From assembly GCA_964577355.1 (NCBI GenBank), contig CAZNYV010000002.1, positions 1 through 57,980 on the forward strand: a stretch of 57,980 bases of DNA, given 5' to 3'. Source of the DNA: an uncultured Campylobacteraceae bacterium. Lineage in GTDB: Bacteria > Campylobacterota > Campylobacteria > Campylobacterales > UBA6016. This document shows, one piece after another, positions 25,404 to 33,712 of the stretch. Within the stretch, counting starts at the first letter, position 1, and the number at the start of each line of letters is the position of its first letter. The position numbers and the translations under genes are program-made. The notes beneath the pieces were generated by a model, which saw only the letters and a program-made list of their open reading frames with translations, did not search any database and was not told the DNA's origin.

Positions 25404-25431
25404 TTAAGTTTATTTTGGTTAGCCTTATAAT
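25404..25431 (+). promoter_or_regulatory. candidate sigma-70-type promoter (TTAAGT-16 nt-TATAAT)
   Basis: Read from the sequence. The -10 lies 26 nt upstream of ATG 25458. RBS GGAGG at 25448-25452. Confidence 0.35.
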
Positions 25432-25457
25432 CTATATTAAATCAACTCGGAGGTCTT

Positions 25458-26465
25458 ATGTTCGTCAGAAGAAAACTACTTATCTCTTCCATGCTTGTCG
25501 GCACCATTCTTCTTACAGGGTGTGGACCAGAAATTAAACTTGCTGAATATGCACCAGCTCATTTGTCAACAGCTACTGTTCTGCCAAGTCAAAGTGAACT
25601 AGAGGGTAAAAAACCAAAAGTTGTTGTTTTGGCAGTAAGCGACACTGGCTCTAGTGCTGCAAGAAATGCAAAAGCTGGTGATGCAGTAACTACAAAAATA
25701 GATAGCATTATCTCTACGAACAAATCTATAGAAGTGGTCGATAGAAGCGCTGCTGCGAAATTGCAAGATGAAGTAAGACTTATTGAGCTCAATAAAAAAT
25801 CAAAATACTCTGGACCAGCAATTGCCGATTTTGTTATTTCTGGCAATATCTCGACAGCATCTAGTGGCTCAAGATTCACAGAAGCATCTACATACTGCGA
25901 CAAAAAAGGCAGATGCTACACGACTCCAGCTAGTTGTACATATAGCGGAAGTGCCGGTGGCATACTTAAGGTCTATGGCTTGCCAGGTCTCAAAGTTGTA
26001 CACGCTGTAGACTTGCAAGGCTCTTCTAGCTTTAGCTCTGAGGGATACTGCAGAAGCAATTACGATGCAAACGGCCTAATATCTCAAGCTGGTGCAAACG
26101 CTGGAAAAAATGCAAAAGTAAAGCTACTAAACTTCTTTAGTCCAAAAGGGTACATAACAGAAAAAAGAGCCAAGGGAAGCGAATCGATATTTTTGGCTCA
26201 ATTTGGTACAGAAGATGGTGTGAAATTCAACGATAATGTCAAAATATACACAGTTTCAGTATCAAAAAATCCTCTAACAGGAAAAGAAAGCAAACAAGAG
26301 GTGTTTCTTGCTGATGCAAAAGTAACAAATCAGCTTACACAGAACACTAGCTGGGTTCTTGTCGAAGATGCAACCGTTGCCTCACAAATCAAACTTGGCG
26401 ATTTTGTGAAAATAGAATATAAACGCGGCTTTATGGACACGCTACAAGATGCTATTAGCGAATAA
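25458..26465 (+). CDS. lipoprotein, CsgG/FlgO/TolB-N-like N-terminal pattern plus beta-rich C-terminal domain
   Basis: 335 aa. Lipobox LLTGC|G. PKVVVLAVSDTG..IEVVDRSAAAKLQDEV..IADFVISGNI resembles the CsgG/LpoB/FlgO-type alpha/beta module. The C-terminus GYITEKRAKGSESIFLAQFGTEDGVKFNDNVKIY resembles a FlgT_C-like barrel. Confidence 0.55.
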   Translation: MFVRRKLLISSMLVGTILLTGCGPEIKLAEYAPAHLSTATVLPSQSELEGKKPKVVVLAVSDTGSSAARNAKAGDAVTTKIDSIISTNKSIEVVDRSAAAKLQDEVRLIELNKKSKYSGPAIADFVISGNISTASSGSRFTEASTYCDKKGRCYTTPASCTYSGSAGGILKVYGLPGLKVVHAVDLQGSSSFSSEGYCRSNYDANGLISQAGANAGKNAKVKLLNFFSPKGYITEKRAKGSESIFLAQFGTEDGVKFNDNVKIYTVSVSKNPLTGKESKQEVFLADAKVTNQLTQNTSWVLVEDATVASQIKLGDFVKIEYKRGFMDTLQDAISE

Positions 26466-27474
26466 TTTCAGCTTGTCACACCAAGAAGGCAAAGAAAAAC
26501 TATTCCAAAAGCTGCTACTGTGTGTGTTTTTGTTTTTTGGTTTGAATTCTCTTTTTGCCGACGACCTTCCATCATGGGTACTGACTCCACCTCAGAGCAC
26601 GAGTGAGTATTTATTTGGTGTCGGCGAGGGTTCAAGCATAAAAGAAGCCAAGGAAGATGCCTTGAATCAAATCGCTTCAAGCATATCAGTATCTATCCAA
26701 TCCAGCTACAAAATGGACGAGTCTTTGAGGCAATCAGGCTCGACATCGATTTATGGCAAAGACATTCAAAACAGCATTAAAAGCGATGTTCAAAAGATAG
26801 ACTTTAGTGAAGTAGAACTTGTTTCAAATGCTGTTTATAACACCAGAAACTACTTGCTACTAAAAGTAAACAGACTAAACTTAGCGAATGAAAAAGAGGA
26901 GCTACTCAAAACCAATCAAGAAAATTTAGCCAAAAAATTTAGCGGCATCTCTGGTCAAAACATTTTGTTTCAGCTGAAAGAGCTAAAACCAATGTTAAAA
27001 ACAGCAGATGAAACAATCGCTCTAGCAAAAATAGCCACTTTTCTTGATAGTAGAATTGACAACAAAGCTGCCATTGCTAGCCTCCAAAAATATGGTCAAT
27101 ACAATGAAGATTTGCTATCGCAAGCACAATTTGTAGTTGTTTCCGACGGCAGCTCAAGAGCTTTTGCTGACGCAATGAAAGAGTCTATAAATGCAGAAAA
27201 AATCAAAACCTCTGACAGAATAGGCAAAAATAGCGTAGTGATTAGAATTACTAGCCAAAGCACTAAAAGCTACATCTACTCTACTTATATGGTAAAATCA
27301 GCTGTCAAAATAGAGCTAATGACGCCTGATAGAGTGGTTGTCTCGACAATCAACAAAGATATTAGTGGCAACTCCAGTCTTGATTATAGCAACGCTACGC
27401 TCGCGGCTGGCTCTAGCTTTTCGGATGAAATAAAAGAGTCCGGTGTTTTTGCATATCTAGGTATCAAACAATAA
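26449..27474 (+). CDS. LPP20-domain secreted protein (long form)
   Basis: 341 aa. Signal peptide ..GLNSLFA|DD. LPP20 core LPSWVLTPP..YLFGVGEGSSIKEAKEDALNQIASSISVSIQS. An alternative TTG start at 26473 is possible. Confidence 0.65.
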   Translation: MLLANNFSLSHQEGKEKLFQKLLLCVFLFFGLNSLFADDLPSWVLTPPQSTSEYLFGVGEGSSIKEAKEDALNQIASSISVSIQSSYKMDESLRQSGSTSIYGKDIQNSIKSDVQKIDFSEVELVSNAVYNTRNYLLLKVNRLNLANEKEELLKTNQENLAKKFSGISGQNILFQLKELKPMLKTADETIALAKIATFLDSRIDNKAAIASLQKYGQYNEDLLSQAQFVVVSDGSSRAFADAMKESINAEKIKTSDRIGKNSVVIRITSQSTKSYIYSTYMVKSAVKIELMTPDRVVVSTINKDISGNSSLDYSNATLAAGSSFSDEIKESGVFAYLGIKQ

Positions 27475-27488
27475 AACAAGGAAGATAA

Positions 27489-28226
27489 ATGTCAAATAAA
27501 ATTACAAAACTATCGTTAGCTGTTGCGTCGGCACTATTTCTTGGAGCTAGTAGCGCTCAAGCTGCGATGTTACTGGGATTTGGAGCTGAGGCTGACTATT
27601 TCAATCCTCAAGTCGGTGGCTCTATGACTTATAATGGGGATTTGAAAACAACTACTGACTTTGGTGGAAAAAACGAAGGTACTTACCAGTTTGGTGCTTT
27701 TTTCGAGCATCCGGTGCCAATCATACCAAACCTTAGGGTAGACTATACTCCGCTGAAAATAAATGCAGCAAGCACAATTAATGCAAATCACGGCTCATTT
27801 AGTACTGGCGTGGCAACAAACAAAATCCAGCTAAATACACTAGATGTCACACCATACTACGAAATTCTGGACAATATTGTCAGCCTAGACCTTGGCGTAA
27901 CGGCTAGAATAATTGACGCCAGTATAGATACTACACAAGGTGCAAACACCAATAGTGAAAACAAATCAGTTGTATTGCCAATGGGCTATATTGCCGCAGA
28001 GGTCAAGCTTCCATTGACAGGACTTAGAATAAATGCTGATTTGAAATATTTGGCTGCAGCTGGCGATAAATATATGGACTCAAAAGCAAAGATTTCATAT
28101 GACATACTTGGTGGTCTTGGAGTTGAGGCTGGATATAGATACCAAGCACTCAAGCTAAACCACTTCAACTTTGACTCAGATGTAACGATAAAAGGTCCAT
28201 TTGTAGGTATGCACTACATATTCTAA
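27489..28226 (+). CDS. outer-membrane beta-barrel protein (resembles the TIGR04219-type family)
   Basis: 245 aa. Signal peptide ..SSAQA|A, alternating beta-strand pattern, FEHPVPIIPNLR motif, C-terminal ..GMHYIF. Confidence 0.6.
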   Translation: MSNKITKLSLAVASALFLGASSAQAAMLLGFGAEADYFNPQVGGSMTYNGDLKTTTDFGGKNEGTYQFGAFFEHPVPIIPNLRVDYTPLKINAASTINANHGSFSTGVATNKIQLNTLDVTPYYEILDNIVSLDLGVTARIIDASIDTTQGANTNSENKSVVLPMGYIAAEVKLPLTGLRINADLKYLAAAGDKYMDSKAKISYDILGGLGVEAGYRYQALKLNHFNFDSDVTIKGPFVGMHYIF

Positions 28227-28244
28227 TTTCTCAAAGGTTTCGTC

Positions 28245-29750
28245 ATGCTCTTTAGATTGATGTTTTTACTATTTTTTGCATTAGTATTGTTTGGTGCAGA
28301 TGATGAGTTCGAAAAATACAAAAATGGCATCAACAAAGAGTATAGCGAATACTACGAAAAAGAGATGAAAGCCTTTGAGACATTCTCTAAAACCGCTGGC
28401 GGGATTCCTGACAAAGTAAATCCTTATCAAAATATGAAAGTTTTGCCACCAAAACCAGTTGTTGCAAAACCAAGCACACCTCCAAAGATTGAGACACCAA
28501 AGCCAGAGCCCGTTACTGTCAAGCCAATCAACAAAATTCCAGAGGGAACTCCGAGCGATTCACAGCTCAAGACTGTCAAATTAGACAAGATAGACCCGTC
28601 AAAACTTATCAAACCAGAGCCAGTACCTGTCACAAAAGAGCCCTCTGTTGTAACACCTGAAAAATTCCAACTAGCCTTTTTTGGGACGAATATTGATTTG
28701 ACACCAGAAAATATTAAATTTACAAAAACTATTAATGGCAATAATACATCAGAAATAGCAATGAAAATCAAGCAAAATGACGCTCGATTGATAAAAGAGA
28801 TGTCCTCTATCAGACAGAATTACAATCTAAACGACTGGGACTCATTTATCTTTGTACAAACACTTGTCAATACACTCTACACCGAAAACCAAAAAAAGAT
28901 AAAAACACTTCACGCCATCGACATTATGAGAGGGCTTGGATATAGAGCACGATTTGCTGAAGATGACTCAGGAGCGCCTTATATACTATTGGAAACAAAA
29001 CAACAGCTGTTCTCGAAAGCATATATAGACAAAGATGGTGGCAGGTTCTATATATTTGCAATAGATGCTCATCCAAGAGCCAGCTTTGCCAAAGCTCTCT
29101 ATTTTTCAAACTCACCAGATGATAGTGTTGGTCAACCAATAGATATGATAATGCACAATGACCCAAAACTTGGCACAAGCAAAAAACCTGTCAAGCTTAG
29201 CTGGGATTTTGATGACAAACCATACCAAATGACAGTAAACCCAAATGAAAATCTAACATCGCTGATGGATATGTATCCTGTTACAGACTATGCAGTTTAT
29301 ATGCAATCTCGCTCAGGCAAGGCACTAGCTGGTGAAATAGCTGCAAATTTATTTTCGACCATCAAGCAAAACAACTACTCAAAAGAAAAATCTGTAGCTT
29401 TTATACTCAAATTCACCCAAAAAGCGTTTGTTTACAAAACAACTTTTGAGGCGTACGGGTATGAAAGACCACTATTTTTGGAGCAAGCAATACTATTGCC
29501 ATACACCGATTGCAAGCATAGAGCCATGATGCTTTCAAACTATTATCGAGAAATTTTGGGGCTTGATAGCATCGGACTGCTCTACCCTGGTCATATTTCA
29601 CTTGGGGTTTCATACAATGGCAGTGGCGATTTTTATATGCTAGATGGCAAGAAATATTTTGTAACAGACGGCACATATTTCTATGCTCTACCTGGCACAA
29701 GTCAACCATCATTCAAAGGAATGGAGGCAAAGTTTGTGCCTACAAAATAA
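28245..29750 (+). CDS. secreted protein: Pro/Lys-rich linker plus C-terminal transglutaminase/papain-like Cys-His-Asp arrangement
   Basis: 501 aa. Signal peptide ..LVLFGA|DD. PPKPVVAKPSTPPKIETPKPEPVTVKP linker. C-terminal YTDC(423)KHRAMMLSNYYREILGL..LYPGH(450)ISLGV..YFVTD(475)GT spacing matches transglutaminase-like cysteine peptidase cores (inference). Confidence 0.5.
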   Translation: MLFRLMFLLFFALVLFGADDEFEKYKNGINKEYSEYYEKEMKAFETFSKTAGGIPDKVNPYQNMKVLPPKPVVAKPSTPPKIETPKPEPVTVKPINKIPEGTPSDSQLKTVKLDKIDPSKLIKPEPVPVTKEPSVVTPEKFQLAFFGTNIDLTPENIKFTKTINGNNTSEIAMKIKQNDARLIKEMSSIRQNYNLNDWDSFIFVQTLVNTLYTENQKKIKTLHAIDIMRGLGYRARFAEDDSGAPYILLETKQQLFSKAYIDKDGGRFYIFAIDAHPRASFAKALYFSNSPDDSVGQPIDMIMHNDPKLGTSKKPVKLSWDFDDKPYQMTVNPNENLTSLMDMYPVTDYAVYMQSRSGKALAGEIAANLFSTIKQNNYSKEKSVAFILKFTQKAFVYKTTFEAYGYERPLFLEQAILLPYTDCKHRAMMLSNYYREILGLDSIGLLYPGHISLGVSYNGSGDFYMLDGKKYFVTDGTYFYALPGTSQPSFKGMEAKFVPTK

Positions 29751-29861
29751 TTTGAATCAAAAACATTCTATAGTCCAAAGAACTTTCTGTGTCAACTTTA
29801 ATAATAATGTTGCTTAAATAGCATAAATCGTTTTGTGAGTCATTTGCGACTTGAATGGTTT

Positions 29862-29877
29862 TGGCACAAGGCAGGCA
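29862..29877 (+). promoter_or_regulatory. candidate sigma-54 (RpoN) promoter TGGCAC-N7-GGCA
   Basis: TGGCACAAGGCAGGCA has GG and GC at the canonical 10-nt spacing, 38 nt upstream of ATG 29916. The -12 TT is missing. It also forms part of a TGGCA-N14-TGCCA inverted repeat. Confidence 0.3.
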
Positions 29878-29915
29878 AAATGCCATCAATCTAAACACAA
29901 AAGAGGAGAATTTAC

Positions 29916-30497
29916 ATGAAATCAAGAGTTCTAAAAAGCGTTATTGCTGCGGCATCTCTAGTACTATTTGCTGGTTGCGCTGCTGAGCAGTCTCCAGTAG
30001 CACAAGCACCTGCTGCTGTAAAAAACAAATTTGCTGGTGCTCCATCGTGGGTACTTAATCCAAACCTTGAGGGCGGAATATGTGCACTTGGTAGTGCTGG
30101 ACCAAATGCTGCAGGGTTTAACTTCCAAAGAACGCAAGCGATGGCAAACGGTAGAGATGAGCTTGTCAGACAACTTGAGCTAAAAGTTAGCAACATGGTA
30201 AAAGACTTTACACAAGTAACAGGTGTGGGCAATGCGGCGACTATCGACAAAGTATCTAGCTCTGTTTCAAAACAAGTTGCAAGCCAAACACTTGCTGGTT
30301 CAAAACTAAAATCTACTTGGGTAGCTGACGATGGTGAGATGTTTGTATTGATGGTGATGGATCCAAATGCAGTTGCAAAAGCCACAAACGACTCTGTCAA
30401 AAGCTCTCTCAAAAACGATCAAGCGCTATGGCAACAATTTCAGGGTAAAAAAGCTCAAGATGAGCTAAGTGCTGAAATAGATAAAATGGTGAAATAA
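29916..30497 (+). CDS. LPP20/FlgP-like lipoprotein
   Basis: 193 aa. Lipobox LFAGC|A. Core GAPSWVLNP..GGICALGSAG..QRTQAMANGRDELVRQLELKVSNMV. Confidence 0.6.
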   Translation: MKSRVLKSVIAAASLVLFAGCAAEQSPVAQAPAAVKNKFAGAPSWVLNPNLEGGICALGSAGPNAAGFNFQRTQAMANGRDELVRQLELKVSNMVKDFTQVTGVGNAATIDKVSSSVSKQVASQTLAGSKLKSTWVADDGEMFVLMVMDPNAVAKATNDSVKSSLKNDQALWQQFQGKKAQDELSAEIDKMVK

Positions 30498-30501
30498 CAT
30501 C

Positions 30502-30954
30502 ATGAAAATATACGGGGCACTAATCATTTTAGTTGCCTCGGTACTTCTTACAGGTTGTGCAGAACTCCAACACGCCTCGTCTAAACCATCAGCTCCTGCA
30601 ATCAATTCAGCTACAAGCTCTAACACCAAACCTGCTTGGTTTTACAGCCCATGTCAAGATGGAAAAATAGGCGGTGTGGGTATTTCTGGAATGCATATCA
30701 ATGGTATATCCGCCCAAAGAGAGCTTGCAGTTAGTAGAGCAATAGATGAAATAGCAAGGCAACTAGGCGTAAAAGTTTCAAACATCCTCAAAACAAGTAC
30801 CGTGGCTAACAATTCGAGTGCATCAACGATGATGGAAAGCTATAGCTTCCAAACGGTTGATGGGAGAAATATAAGCGCTTCAATCGCAGGAATATGGAAT
30901 GACACAACTACTGATGAGCTGTATATCTGGATGTTGACATCGCAAAAACAATAG
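30502..30954 (+). CDS. LPP20/FlgP-like lipoprotein (paralogue of the preceding gene)
   Basis: 150 aa. Lipobox LLTGC|A. Core KPAWFYSP..GKIGGVGISG..AQRELAVSRAIDEIARQLGVKVSNIL. Confidence 0.6.
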   Translation: MKIYGALIILVASVLLTGCAELQHASSKPSAPAINSATSSNTKPAWFYSPCQDGKIGGVGISGMHINGISAQRELAVSRAIDEIARQLGVKVSNILKTSTVANNSSASTMMESYSFQTVDGRNISASIAGIWNDTTTDELYIWMLTSQKQ

Positions 30955-30986
30955 TTCTTCAAAAGTAAAAAATCAAGGAGTAAGAA

Positions 30987-31679
30987 GTGCTAAAAATATT
31001 TTTGGTATTTGTGTCTTTGTTTGTGGGCTTGCTTTTTGCAGCCCAACCGCCAGTTGGTAAAATAGATAAAACCGAGGGCAGTGTAAAGCTCTTAAAAGCA
31101 GGTACAATCAAAAAATTAAATGCCAATAAAGGCGATGAAATTTTTGCCAGCGACATTGTTATTACTGGGGAGAGCTCAAAGGCACTTGTCAAACTAACCA
31201 ATGGCACAAGCATAGTTGTTGGCTCACAAAGCAAAGTAGAGTTCAAGTCACCAGATTTGGCGATGCAATCAGAGGGTAAAAGTCTATACGCTGTAAATAA
31301 GCGAAATGCCAACGATAGCTTCAAAGTAGCTACTGACTTCGCAACCATTGGTGTCAAAGGCACAGAGTTTATAGTATCCTCCAACAAAGACGACAATAGA
31401 GTTTCTCTCAAAAAAGGACTTGTTGATGTCACTTCAAATGACGGTAATTTTGAGATACACAAAAAACAACCAAAAGGTGATTATGCAGAGTTTGCAGAGG
31501 GTATAAAATCAGAGTATCAAAAATACCAATCAGACCTTGAAAAAGAGTTTGTGGAATTCAAAAAATCCTTTGAACTGACACCAGATAAAACAGTTAGCTT
31601 CAATGGTAAAAAAGTTTACGAAAACAAATTTAATGACAAAATCACAGAAGAGTTCAAGGAGCTTGAAAACTTCAAATGA
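30987..31679 (+). CDS. FecR-domain periplasmic protein
   Basis: 230 aa. GTG start 7 nt after AAGGAG, with a signal peptide. GSVKLLKAGTIKKLNANKGDEIFASDIVITGESSKALVKLTNGTSIVVGSQSKVEF is a typical FecR beta-sandwich pattern. Confidence 0.65.
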   Translation: MLKIFLVFVSLFVGLLFAAQPPVGKIDKTEGSVKLLKAGTIKKLNANKGDEIFASDIVITGESSKALVKLTNGTSIVVGSQSKVEFKSPDLAMQSEGKSLYAVNKRNANDSFKVATDFATIGVKGTEFIVSSNKDDNRVSLKKGLVDVTSNDGNFEIHKKQPKGDYAEFAEGIKSEYQKYQSDLEKEFVEFKKSFELTPDKTVSFNGKKVYENKFNDKITEEFKELENFK

Positions 31680-33712
31680 GAGAGCACCTGTTAGCGAGAT
31701 ACATACTAGTTATAGCTTCGCTCGCTCTCACCCTGCTCGTGTGGTACTACGAAGTGCCACCCTTTCAACAAATCTCACTCAAATTTAACGATATAAATTA
31801 TGCATTCAACAGCAATTATCCAGAACAAAGCGTGGAAATTGTTGTAGTTGACGAGAAAAGTGTTAACAAATACGGCAGATGGCCTTGGGATAGGGCGCTA
31901 CTAGCCAAGGGGCTTGAGAAGCTTTCAAGTGCAAAAGCCGTAGGACTGGATATTGTTTTTTCAGAAAACTCCAGCGAAGTATCAGACTTAGCATTGGCAA
32001 AACAAATAGAAAAACAAGGCAATGTCATAGGCGGTTTTTTCTTGAGACCACGAGCCACAGAACAGCCAAACAAAAACCAACTAGAAAAACTAGCAGACTC
32101 ATCCATGGAGAGGCTTGATGGCAAGCTTCCATTTTACAAATTCCCATATGCTGAGCTAAACATCGAACCTATTTTAAATTCAACACAGCTCTCGGGTTGC
32201 TTCTCAACAGTTCCAGACAGTGACGAGCTTTTTAGAAGATACCCTGCAGCTTTTATCTACAACAACTCAGTACTACCATCACTTGGGGTTCAGCTTCTCA
32301 GGTATGCACTAAATATAGATGCGGAACTTGCCAGTAACGACTATCAACAATATCTAATGCTCCACGACCTAAAAATTTCGTTAGATACCGATGGCTTTGC
32401 GAAACTGAACTACTATCCTCTCAAAAGCTACAATCTAATCTCCTTTGCGGATGTTCTTGAAGGCAAGGTACAGCCGAGCTTTTTTGACAACAAAATAGTC
32501 ATCGTAGGAATCTCCGAAGCTGGAATATCCGACATCAGAGCGACACCACTCGGACAAATCGCTGGTCCAATACTGCACGCTACATTCATCTCAAATGTTC
32601 TGCAAGGAACGATTTTAAATCAACAAAAACTCTTCGATAGCGCTTTTATAGCACTATTCTTCCTGCTTCCTCTATTTGTTCAGTTTAGGGTCAAAAACAT
32701 CTCCCATCGAATGTCCATCTATGCTCTGACATATATTATGTATTTTTGCGTTTCGATTGTTCTGTACTCATACAAAGCCCAATGGCTAAATACATTTTAT
32801 CCACTCTTTGCGATTTCATTTTCTGTAGTTTTGAATGAGTTTTTGACTTTCAAAATTGACGAAAAGCAGGCAAAATTTATCAAAGGTGCTTTCACAAACT
32901 ATATGTCAGAAGATTTATTGGAGCAACTAGTCGATAATCCTGAAAAACTAACTCTAACTGGTGAGGAAAAAGAGTTGACCATCCTCTTTAGCGACATTAG
33001 AAATTTCACAACCATATCTGAATCACTGACATCAAAAGAGCTCGTCTCTCTACTAAATAGCTATTTCACACCTCTCACCAAAATCATCCAAGACGAACAC
33101 GGGACTGTTGACAAGTATATCGGGGATGCCATTATGGCTTTTTTCAACGCTCCGTTAGATTGCCAAGACCACCCAGCTGTTGCCTGCAGGTGCGCACTCA
33201 AGATGCAAGAGGCTCTAAAACATATGAACAAAGAGTTTGATAAATTTTCAAAACGCCCGATTGCGATGGGTATTGGTATCAACACCGGAGAGGTTACAAT
33301 CGGCAATATGGGTGCAGCAAATAAATTCAATTATACTGCAATAGGTGACAATGTAAATATTGCCTCTAGGCTGGAGGGGATAAATAAAAATTTTGGGACT
33401 GGAATCATCATCAGCGAATCAACGAAGGTTCAGCTGGATGAAAATGAGTTCTTGTGCAGGTATCTAGGGCGAGTTCCGCTCAAAGGAAAAGAGAAGAAAA
33501 TTGATATTTATGAGCTGCTTGAAAACAATGAACACAACCAAAGAAAGTGCAAATATTTCCAAACTATATTTGATAAAATAGAGGAGGGTGAAATTGTTAG
33601 TATGAGCGATAACATATTTGAGCAATTAGAACAAACAGATGAAGTAGGATATACAATCTGTCTAAATAAAATCAACGGAAAGGGTATAGATGCTAGAGGT
33701 AATAATTCTTAA
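31676..33712 (+). CDS. CHASE2-sensor class III adenylate/guanylate cyclase
   Basis: 678 aa. ATGA overlap with the FecR gene. N-terminal TM plus a periplasmic CHASE2-like region (VVVDEKSVNKYGRWPWDR), 3 further TM helices, and a cyclase core: ILFSDIRNFTTISE, DKYIGDAIMAFFNAP, GINTGEVTIGNMG, YTAIGDNVNIASRLEG. The Lys/Thr specificity pair suggests adenylate cyclase (inference). Confidence 0.8.
   Translation: MREHLLARYILVIASLALTLLVWYYEVPPFQQISLKFNDINYAFNSNYPEQSVEIVVVDEKSVNKYGRWPWDRALLAKGLEKLSSAKAVGLDIVFSENSSEVSDLALAKQIEKQGNVIGGFFLRPRATEQPNKNQLEKLADSSMERLDGKLPFYKFPYAELNIEPILNSTQLSGCFSTVPDSDELFRRYPAAFIYNNSVLPSLGVQLLRYALNIDAELASNDYQQYLMLHDLKISLDTDGFAKLNYYPLKSYNLISFADVLEGKVQPSFFDNKIVIVGISEAGISDIRATPLGQIAGPILHATFISNVLQGTILNQQKLFDSAFIALFFLLPLFVQFRVKNISHRMSIYALTYIMYFCVSIVLYSYKAQWLNTFYPLFAISFSVVLNEFLTFKIDEKQAKFIKGAFTNYMSEDLLEQLVDNPEKLTLTGEEKELTILFSDIRNFTTISESLTSKELVSLLNSYFTPLTKIIQDEHGTVDKYIGDAIMAFFNAPLDCQDHPAVACRCALKMQEALKHMNKEFDKFSKRPIAMGIGINTGEVTIGNMGAANKFNYTAIGDNVNIASRLEGINKNFGTGIIISESTKVQLDENEFLCRYLGRVPLKGKEKKIDIYELLENNEHNQRKCKYFQTIFDKIEEGEIVSMSDNIFEQLEQTDEVGYTICLNKINGKGIDARGNNS

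Follow-up and report, generated by a model that had tools for sequence, protein, structure and literature searches.

Two kinds of bacterial envelope protein form the background to a gene array in an uncultured Campylobacteraceae bacterium (GenBank assembly GCA_964577355.1, contig CAZNYV010000002.1, positions 1 to 57,980 of the forward strand; this whole stretch of 57,980 nt is called the window here), in which a gene for a putative periplasmic enzyme, g4, lies among genes for LPP20-family and FlgT-like proteins. On the enzyme side, bacterial transglutaminase-like proteins are mostly proteases, and among them LapG is a periplasmic Ca2+-dependent transglutaminase-like cysteine protease in which acidic residues flanking the Cys bind the Ca2+ needed for activity. 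On the lipoprotein side, members of the LPP20 family are abundant, immunogenic and of unknown function; Lpp20 of Helicobacter pylori has been studied as an antigen, and flagellar disks are built from FlgP and FlgT. FlgP, Lpp20 and FlgT have a common SHS2-like fold, and ring formation in these proteins accompanies a beta-hairpin insert (PMC12222027).

Here, we place g4 in an unmodelled family within the transglutaminase-like superfamily and report a previously undescribed, phylogenetically broad linkage of this family to LPP20/SHS2 lipoproteins. Our literature search found no paper describing an association of LPP20 with transglutaminase-like, CHASE2, FecR, DUF4384 or TIGR04219 proteins. Within the window, g4 is the last of four closely spaced genes:

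25458-26465, + strand: g1, 335 aa, predicted FlgT-like lipoprotein
26449-27474, + strand: g2, 341 aa, secreted protein with an LPP20 domain
27489-28226, + strand: g3, 245 aa, small outer membrane (OM) beta-barrel
28245-29750, + strand: g4, 501 aa, putative transglutaminase-like protein

By open reading frame (ORF) coordinates, g1 and g2 overlap by 17 nt, and gaps of 14 nt and 18 nt separate g2 from g3 and g3 from g4; the overlap hinges on the ATG at 26449, and with the alternative in-frame TTG at 26473 the two genes would still be closely spaced, 7 nt apart. Each of the four products has an export signal, as read from its translation: a lipobox in g1 and type-I signal peptides in g2, g3 and g4. 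A larger co-directional envelope array, from 25458 to 33712, begins with these four genes.

The probable transglutaminase-like domain of g4

The g4 protein begins with a signal peptide (residues 1-18) and a conserved aromatic and charged helix (~19-48), continues through a Pro-rich spacer of roughly 85 residues with PKP and KP motifs (~49-135) and an alpha+beta middle domain (140-330), and ends in a transglutaminase/BTLCP-like domain (~376-501). In its AlphaFold2 (AF2) model (predicted local distance difference test score, pLDDT, 85.3; predicted template modelling score, pTM, 0.83), the N-terminal helix spans residues 3-48 and includes the signal peptide, the spacer is of low confidence or disordered, and the globular part is two-lobed, with pLDDT above 90 around the triad. 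Within the second lobe, C423 caps the N-terminus of a helix (423-438), H450 opens a strand (450-455) and D475 stands right after another strand (469-474), a predicted topology that is the papain/transglutaminase arrangement. The putative catalytic residues are encoded as follows:

29508-29522, + strand: candidate active-site motif D422-C423-K424-H425-R426 (gat tgc aag cat aga), with the C423 codon tgc at 29511-29513
29592-29594, + strand: H450 codon, in the context YPGH, placed by alignment and model topology
29667-29669, + strand: D475 codon, in the context VTDGT, placed by alignment

Across 42 homologues (22-61% identity), D422, C423, R426 and H450 never vary, and at least 90% keep D475, a few having Glu in its place. 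A larger alignment of 211 sequences, which includes about a dozen unrelated ORFs, has the Cys in 196, the His in 200 and the Asp in 205, and judged from it the three residues appear essentially invariant across about 190 family members, more than chance would give. Around the nucleophile, the family consensus is DCEDR (E in 201/211, D in 204/211) and the window copy reads DCKHR; each of the two codons concerned (aag cat, 29514-29519) is one base off a GAG or GAT consensus codon.

Several comparisons connect the family to known transglutaminase-like enzymes. Sub-threshold matches to Transglut_core are found in 11 of the 42 homologues (best E 0.004), and to DUF553 in four. A 202-aa Campylobacterales protein, L138, matches positions 419-492 of the g4 profile (E 2.8e-6) and itself passes the Pfam Transglut_core model PF01841 (30 bits vs a cut-off of 23), providing an indirect link to g4. 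When the g4 family was compared by hhalign with a Transglut_core alignment assembled from relatives' genomes, the Cys and Asp columns coincided (P 0.025), and a comparison with BTLCP/Peptidase_C93 gave P 0.0016 over 43 columns; as a control, the two acknowledged relatives Transglut_core and BTLCP gave 1e-4 against each other. In the BTLCP comparison, the g4 stretch ...Y.TD..yG....sDCEDR aligns with ...Ya.D..yG....GDCEDY. From these results, the C-terminal domain of g4 very probably belongs to the transglutaminase-like/BTLCP superfamily, in a family under selection for a thiol active site.

An earlier note on this DNA, made from the sequence alone, had described the four ORFs with these coordinates, spacings (-17, +14 and +18 nt) and export signals, and had drawn attention to the Pro-rich spacer and to C423, H450 and D475 as a transglutaminase/papain-like core in g4. 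Our ORF check agrees with that description throughout, the Cys and His proved invariant and the Asp at least 90% conserved among the 42 homologues, and the proposed core is upheld by the triad, the AF2 topology, the link through L138 and the hhalign comparisons.

Compared with described families, g4 is like LapG/BTLCP (PF06035) in being periplasmic, in the order Cys-His-Asp, in the likeness of the family consensus sDCEDR to GDCEDY, in the alignment of the preceding Y..D..yG block and in having second-messenger genes nearby. It is unlike them in its length of about 500 aa, in its extra N-terminal helix, Pro-rich spacer and 190-aa middle domain, in its DCKHR motif and in giving no match to PF06035, a model that is also missing from the listed matches of its 42 homologues; furthermore, Pfam and NCBIfam scans of the window found no LapD-, LapA- or LapE-like neighbour. 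The likeness to Transglut_core and DUF553 lies in the conserved triad, the topology, the weak matches of homologues and the transitive link, whereas the window protein itself is below threshold for every model and has no significant structural neighbour. A bona fide BTLCP/Peptidase_C93 gene (PF06035, LapG-type, 65 bits) is present elsewhere in the source genome (contig C8, 10517-10828), and g4 is therefore not the sole transglutaminase-like periplasmic enzyme of this genome.

The family to which g4 belongs is very large, unnamed and without a Pfam or NCBIfam model. The 42 homologues come from a protein collection clustered at 90%, and a GTDB scan extended the family to at least 588 species genomes. 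A separate search gave 4,802 clusters at 50% identity (E<=1e-3; 1,849 clusters at E<=1e-30), nearly all of which are 480-520 aa long with the same end-to-end architecture. Taxonomically, the family reaches across phyla including Campylobacterota, Bacteroidota, Gammaproteobacteria, Nitrospirota, KSB1 and Cloacimonadota, and the aromatic and charged N-terminal helix is kept across all phyla with g4. Such a family merits a curated model, which Pfam and NCBIfam both lack.

Partners of g4 in the array and in other genomes

The conserved partners of g4 and g1 fall just outside the four-gene span of 25458-29750. They are the LPP20-family genes g5 and g6, which are followed by two putative signalling genes:

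29916-30497, + strand: g5, 193 aa, LPP20-family lipoprotein (H. pylori Lpp20-like; PF02169, 48.1 bits vs a cut-off of 25.9)
30502-30954, + strand: g6, 150-aa lipoprotein, a diverged LPP20 paralogue of g5 (g5 matches g6 at E 7.4e-11, 31% identity)
30987-33712, + strand: g7, secreted FecR-domain protein, and g8, CHASE2-TM-class III nucleotidyl cyclase (Pfam: FecR 46 bits, CHASE2 166 bits, Guanylate_cyc 105 bits)

Co-occurrence was counted in 201 sampled Campylobacterales genomes, among which g4 is present in 21 (plus two partial matches), g5 in 65, g3 in 83 and full-length g1 in 19. In these, g5 accompanies 20 of the 21 g4-positive and 18 of the 19 g1-positive genomes, against 65/201 overall, and g1 and g4 are found together in only 3/201. 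The barrel gene g3 adjoins g4/g5 only in this window and is unlinked in the other 200 genomes searched; in the sister genus, its 61%-identical orthologue lies 10-19 kb from the cluster genes.

Gene order varies among relatives. The closest arrays (59% identity) run cyclic nucleotide (cNMP)-binding protein, g4, 381-aa lipoprotein, g2-like, 323-aa lipoprotein, g5, g6, FecR and CHASE2-cyclase, with neither g1 nor g3, and in Sulfuricurvum g4 adjoins g6, g5 and g1 on the opposite strand. One locus (L083) has the order g2-like / g1, g5, g6, PA14 / g4, a 184-aa protein, LPP20 and Peptidase_C14, and another (L085) reads cyclase, FecR, g2-like / g1, g5, g6 with no g4 nearby. More generally, g1 adjoins g5/g6 in L006, L083, L085 and several genomes, g6 accompanies g5 in L001, L006, L083, L085, L014 and L144, g2-like genes flank g1/g5/g6 in L083, L085, L001 and L148, and the pair of FecR and CHASE2-cyclase genes also adjoins LPP20 genes in L001-L005 and L085. 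On a wider phylogenetic scale, an LPP20-like gene (g5-type, or one of three Bacteroidota families linked to g5-type by hhalign at 82-94% probability) lies within 5 kb at 49 of 80 g4 loci from Campylobacterota, Bacteroidota, Gammaproteobacteria, Nitrospirota and KSB1, and a 2-Mb genome carries only about 4 LPP20 genes.

Given the recurrence of g5/g6, as opposed to the rarity of g1 together with g4 and the unlinked position of g3, the LPP20 proteins are the conserved hub of these loci; g1, g2, g4, FecR/CHASE2 and the caspase-like proteins recur as accessories that can be absent, and g3 is an insertion particular to this locus. The earlier note had read the four genes as an enzyme delivered with a dedicated barrel and lipoprotein scaffold; a self-contained operon of this kind is not supported, as g3 is unlinked in the other 200 Campylobacterales genomes searched, g1 and g4 rarely co-occur and the g4 loci of close relatives have neither g1 nor g3. 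Likewise, the expectation that all four genes would be syntenic elsewhere failed for the set as a whole, which is not a conserved unit, and held in part, since g1, g2 and g4 recur with g5/g6. For the individual partners, the note's LPP20 assignment of g2 and OM beta-barrel assignment of g3 both proved right, and for g1 its label of CsgG/FlgO-like caught the fold class but missed the specific match, as set out below.

The g1 protein (lipobox LLTG/C22) is modelled by AF2 (pLDDT 82.4) as two domains, the first of the SHS2/TolB-N-like alpha/beta type, in which three long strands are predicted (125-195), and the second a beta-barrel at the C-terminus (230-320). Its best Foldseek match is Vibrio FlgT (3w1e, E 8.9e-15 over 292 columns, 11% identity) and the second is a FlgT chain in the cryo-electron microscopy structure of the LPHT ring (8z5n, E 1.2e-13), with a TM score to FlgT of only about 0.3 that is consistent with a different domain orientation; matches to CsgG (about 1e-5), HpaA, PelC, LptE and TolB-N are weaker (1e-5 to 1e-4). 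Scans with Pfam and NCBIfam, including FlgT_N, FlgT_M and FlgT_C, gave no match for g1, which has 16 homologues in the protein collection. Judged by its model, g1 is predicted to be an OM lipoprotein of the FlgT fold, a better fit than CsgG. With FlgT as the best structural match, the FlgO/FlgP/FlgT-type resemblance that the note had also mentioned is therefore real at the fold level. The likeness to Vibrio FlgT (with FlgO and FlgP) consists in the FlgT fold over ~290 columns and in neighbours of the LPP20/FlgP fold, as flgT neighbours flgP, whereas the low identity, the lipoprotein nature of g1, the position of the array outside any flagellar gene cluster and the lack of any MotX or MotY seen set it apart.

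The g2 protein is secreted and has an N-terminal LPP20 domain (residues 41-125; PF02169, 34.2 bits vs a cut-off of 25.9), a helical central region and a further domain at the C-terminus; its residues 51-142 weakly match PDB 4kzs, a "LPP20 lipofamily protein" (E 0.044) that we take to be H. pylori HP1454. The g3 protein, with a signal peptide and the C-terminus ...HYIF, matches the NCBIfam model TIGR04219 at 205.3 bits (cut-off 105). The g5 protein matches Lpp20 (5ok8) near full length at E 0.0023. As FlgP, Lpp20 and FlgT have a common SHS2-like fold, the array thus holds four proteins of one fold family.

The set resembles the H. pylori lpp20 operon (HP1454, HP1456/Lpp20, HP1457), from the same bacterial order, in that both encode secreted or lipoprotein sets, with g2, g5 and g6 as counterparts of the operon's proteins, g5 corresponding to 5ok8 and g2 to 4kzs; it differs in the weakness of these sequence matches (E 0.002 and 0.04) and in adding a FlgT-like lipoprotein, a barrel, g4 and the FecR/CHASE2 cyclase pair. 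With the Campylobacter/Helicobacter FlgP-FlgQ basal disk it has in common the LPP20/SHS2 fold, a flexibly linked tether by way of an OM lipoprotein and a tandem paralogous pair, but a flgP/flgQ-like locus lies apart from the array, on contig C3 of the source genome, and g5/g6-type genes are missing from many flagellated families.

Candidate regulatory signals in and before the array are the following:

25429-25434, + strand: TATAAT -10-like hexamer, which together with a GGAGG 7 nt before the g1 ATG forms a candidate promoter and ribosome-binding site (consensus match only)
29862-29877, + strand: sigma-54-like element TGGCACAAGGCAGGCA (TGGCAC-N5-AGGCA), a possible internal promoter before g5

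The hexamer and the GGAGG sit within the 71-nt gap between queH and g1. A consensus scan for promoters and terminators returned a background level overall and no + strand terminator inside the array. The sigma-54-like element is housed in the 165-nt gap between g4 and g5, the sole sizeable gap of the array; with three such matches observed in the window against 0.83 expected, the signal is weak, and the element is absent from the equivalent g4-g5 gap of the relative L001.

Proposed role of g4 and rival explanations

The role that we consider most likely, with moderate confidence and with the mechanism inferred, is that g4 is a periplasmic cysteine peptidase or transamidase serving a sub-OM lipoprotein scaffold whose fold relates it to the proteins of flagellar disks and rings. 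The array would be centred on LPP20/SHS2-fold proteins beneath the OM, with g4 anchored or docked through its N-terminal helix and with a Pro-rich spacer that may be long enough for it to reach a target away from its anchor point. There, g4 would act as a thiol peptidase on an OM-tethered partner, trimming or releasing it as LapG does, or, less likely, as a transamidase cross-linking the scaffold. The nearby FecR/CHASE2 cyclase pair, and cNMP-binding or GGDEF-EAL genes in relatives, suggest that the system might be under second-messenger control. Regarding activity, g4 may well be a peptidase by analogy with LapG; some other activity, or no catalysis at all, is a possibility to which we give less weight, and a transamidase that cross-links the scaffold seems unlikely. 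The tail of g5 (ALWQQF..K..DEL) was considered as a Gln/Lys substrate of a transglutaminase and rejected: it is found in most g5 homologues with or without g4 and is not conserved in Bacteroidota, and it therefore lends no support to cross-linking.

We acknowledge that a number of results weigh against this role or against the superfamily assignment beneath it. Searches with the window g4 against Pfam (E<=0.1), NCBIfam and PDB sequences, and with the g4 profile against PDB, gave no relevant match, and Foldseek with the whole multi-domain model reached only E 0.02, which is not significant; the top matches, weak as they are, nevertheless favour the assignment, being transglutaminase-fold proteins or cysteine proteases (3kd4 (BDI_1141), factor XIII, TG2, PNGase, menin and CPR-C4). 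The window copy has K424/H425 where, by alignment, 95-97% of the family has E/D, and activity or metal dependence may therefore differ in this copy. No conserved di-alanine or other cleavage or cross-link site was found in the partner proteins or linkers. On the genomic side, Cloacimonadota g4 genes (14 loci) stand amid housekeeping genes with no LPP20 neighbour, the g4-like gene and g5 are about 1 Mb apart in one family (f15), and g5 is found in 45 genomes without g4, so g4 is dispensable for LPP20 proteins.

Three other explanations fit these observations less well. The unusual motif (DCKHR here, against E in 201/211 and D in 204/211 of the family) would be expected if the window g4 were a non-catalytic, structural or binding protein that kept its nucleophile after E424K and D425H had disabled a LapG-like metal-dependent site, but D422, C423, R426, H450 and D475 are all kept and the gene is intact and 59-61% identical to relatives with the consensus motif, and we regard this as improbable. 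That the array might be no more than unrelated envelope genes brought together by chance, uncoupled in function, would agree with the unlinked g3, with the shuffled gene order among relatives and with the consensus scan, in which no + strand terminator or promoter signal separates or joins the genes. Against it, several families have g1, g2, g4, g5 and g6 together again, variously ordered and oriented, and g4 is repeatedly found with LPP20 across five phyla; recurrence of this shuffled kind is a signature of functional linkage rather than inherited order, making a chance origin highly improbable. Least credible of all is a CsgG/curli-type secretion unit with g1 as OM channel, g3 as accessory barrel and g4 as secreted cargo. 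The CsgG chains matched by g1 and the export signals on all four products might suggest one, but FlgT fits g1 nine to ten orders of magnitude better and across both of its domains, no CsgA-, CsgB-, CsgE- or CsgF-like gene was found in the array by Pfam and NCBIfam scans, g1 and g4 scarcely co-occur, and g4 relatives exist without g1 or g3 nearby.

A flagellar role is a more serious rival than these, though it too seems unlikely to us: the array would supply peri-flagellar ring or disk parts (FlgT-like g1 and FlgP-like g2, g5 and g6), with g4 as an enzyme serving the L-ring/disk region of the Campylobacterota motor. In its favour, the best structural match of g1 is the H-ring protein FlgT, LPP20 and FlgP are of one fold (PMC12222027), a sigma-54-like element precedes g5, and a non-flagellate family (f6, flgH in 0/14) has no g4, g5 or g1. 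Moreover, ten genomes of a single Campylobacterales family, and the metagenome-assembled genome (MAG) L074, have a g4-like gene (22-25% identity, with the DCEDR motif intact) directly 3' of flgH, on its strand and 8-80 nt downstream. Those loci are L140:7878-9999 (G024:C1:1334904-1336845), G113, G172, G137, G183, G125, G087, G161, G058, G043 and L074:7128-9365; in L140 a GGDEF-EAL gene follows the flgH-linked g4, and the housekeeping genes mutS, yqeY and valS flank the locus. However, Bacteroidota commonly have g4 near LPP20-like genes, and g4 also occurs in Cloacimonadota, neither group being known to be flagellate, and a 97% complete genome (G021) has g4, g5 and g1 with no flgH match. The sigma-54-like element is weak and not conserved. 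In H. pylori, FapH and FlgP are linked to HP1456 and HP1454 by co-purification and by two-hybrid signals, an association in keeping with a flagellar role, but deletion of hp1456 altered neither the number of flagella nor motility nor the structure of the motor in situ (PMC11756786). Finally, the source genome has a separate flgP/flgQ-like locus, on contig C3 (L173:1070-3161, - strand), with the order gyrA-like C-terminus, 123-aa lipoprotein, 170-aa LPP20-domain protein (its linker rich in Pro, Ala and Lys) and 133-aa ORF; it has the look of the canonical fapH-like/flgP/flgQ locus, apart from the LPP20 genes of the window, and its layout presumably matches the gyrA-flgP-flgQ arrangement of C. 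jejuni. We read the flgH linkage as the g4 family working with ring-forming OM lipoproteins generally, and not as flagellar by origin.

Returning to the enzyme-and-scaffold role, a bolder version of it, which we offer only tentatively, is that the g4 family and LPP20/SHS2 lipoproteins (here with a FlgT-like protein) might constitute a widespread, undescribed, non-flagellar sub-OM scaffold in at least five phyla, in which g4, docked by its helix and Pro-rich tether, would mature the scaffold by cleavage or isopeptide cross-linking, and from which FlgP/FlgT and the flgH-linked g4 would be later recruitments. The genomic link between LPP20 and a large transglutaminase/LapG-like family, in flagellate and non-flagellate phyla, offers an enzyme plus scaffold or substrate hypothesis for both, and it bears on the origin of the elaborate outer rings of high-torque flagellar motors from ordinary envelope proteins.

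Minor observations at related loci

Within the window, residues 26-98 of g7 (30987-31679) give a sub-threshold NCBIfam match to retention_LapA (26 bits vs a cut-off of 50). In the relative L001, the gene of a 165-aa cNMP-binding protein (L001:7434-7934) stands immediately 5' of g4, and its array also includes the CHASE2 cyclase gene. In gammaproteobacterial MAGs (L014:419-9664; also L015, L021, L034, L035 and L052), g6-like, g5-like and g4 genes follow a ccmF/G/H/I-dsbA block, and a conserved 327-aa protein without a family match, which may be an OM protein, comes next. Peptidase_C14 (caspase-like) proteins recur, paired with LPP20 proteins, in g4 neighbourhoods of Bacteroidota and in L083, and the source genome has this second kind of pairing between a cysteine-protease-like and an LPP20 protein too: on contig C93 of the source genome (L172:11-2069, - strand) a 481-aa lipoprotein with a Peptidase_C14 caspase domain is encoded directly 5' of an LPP20-domain protein.

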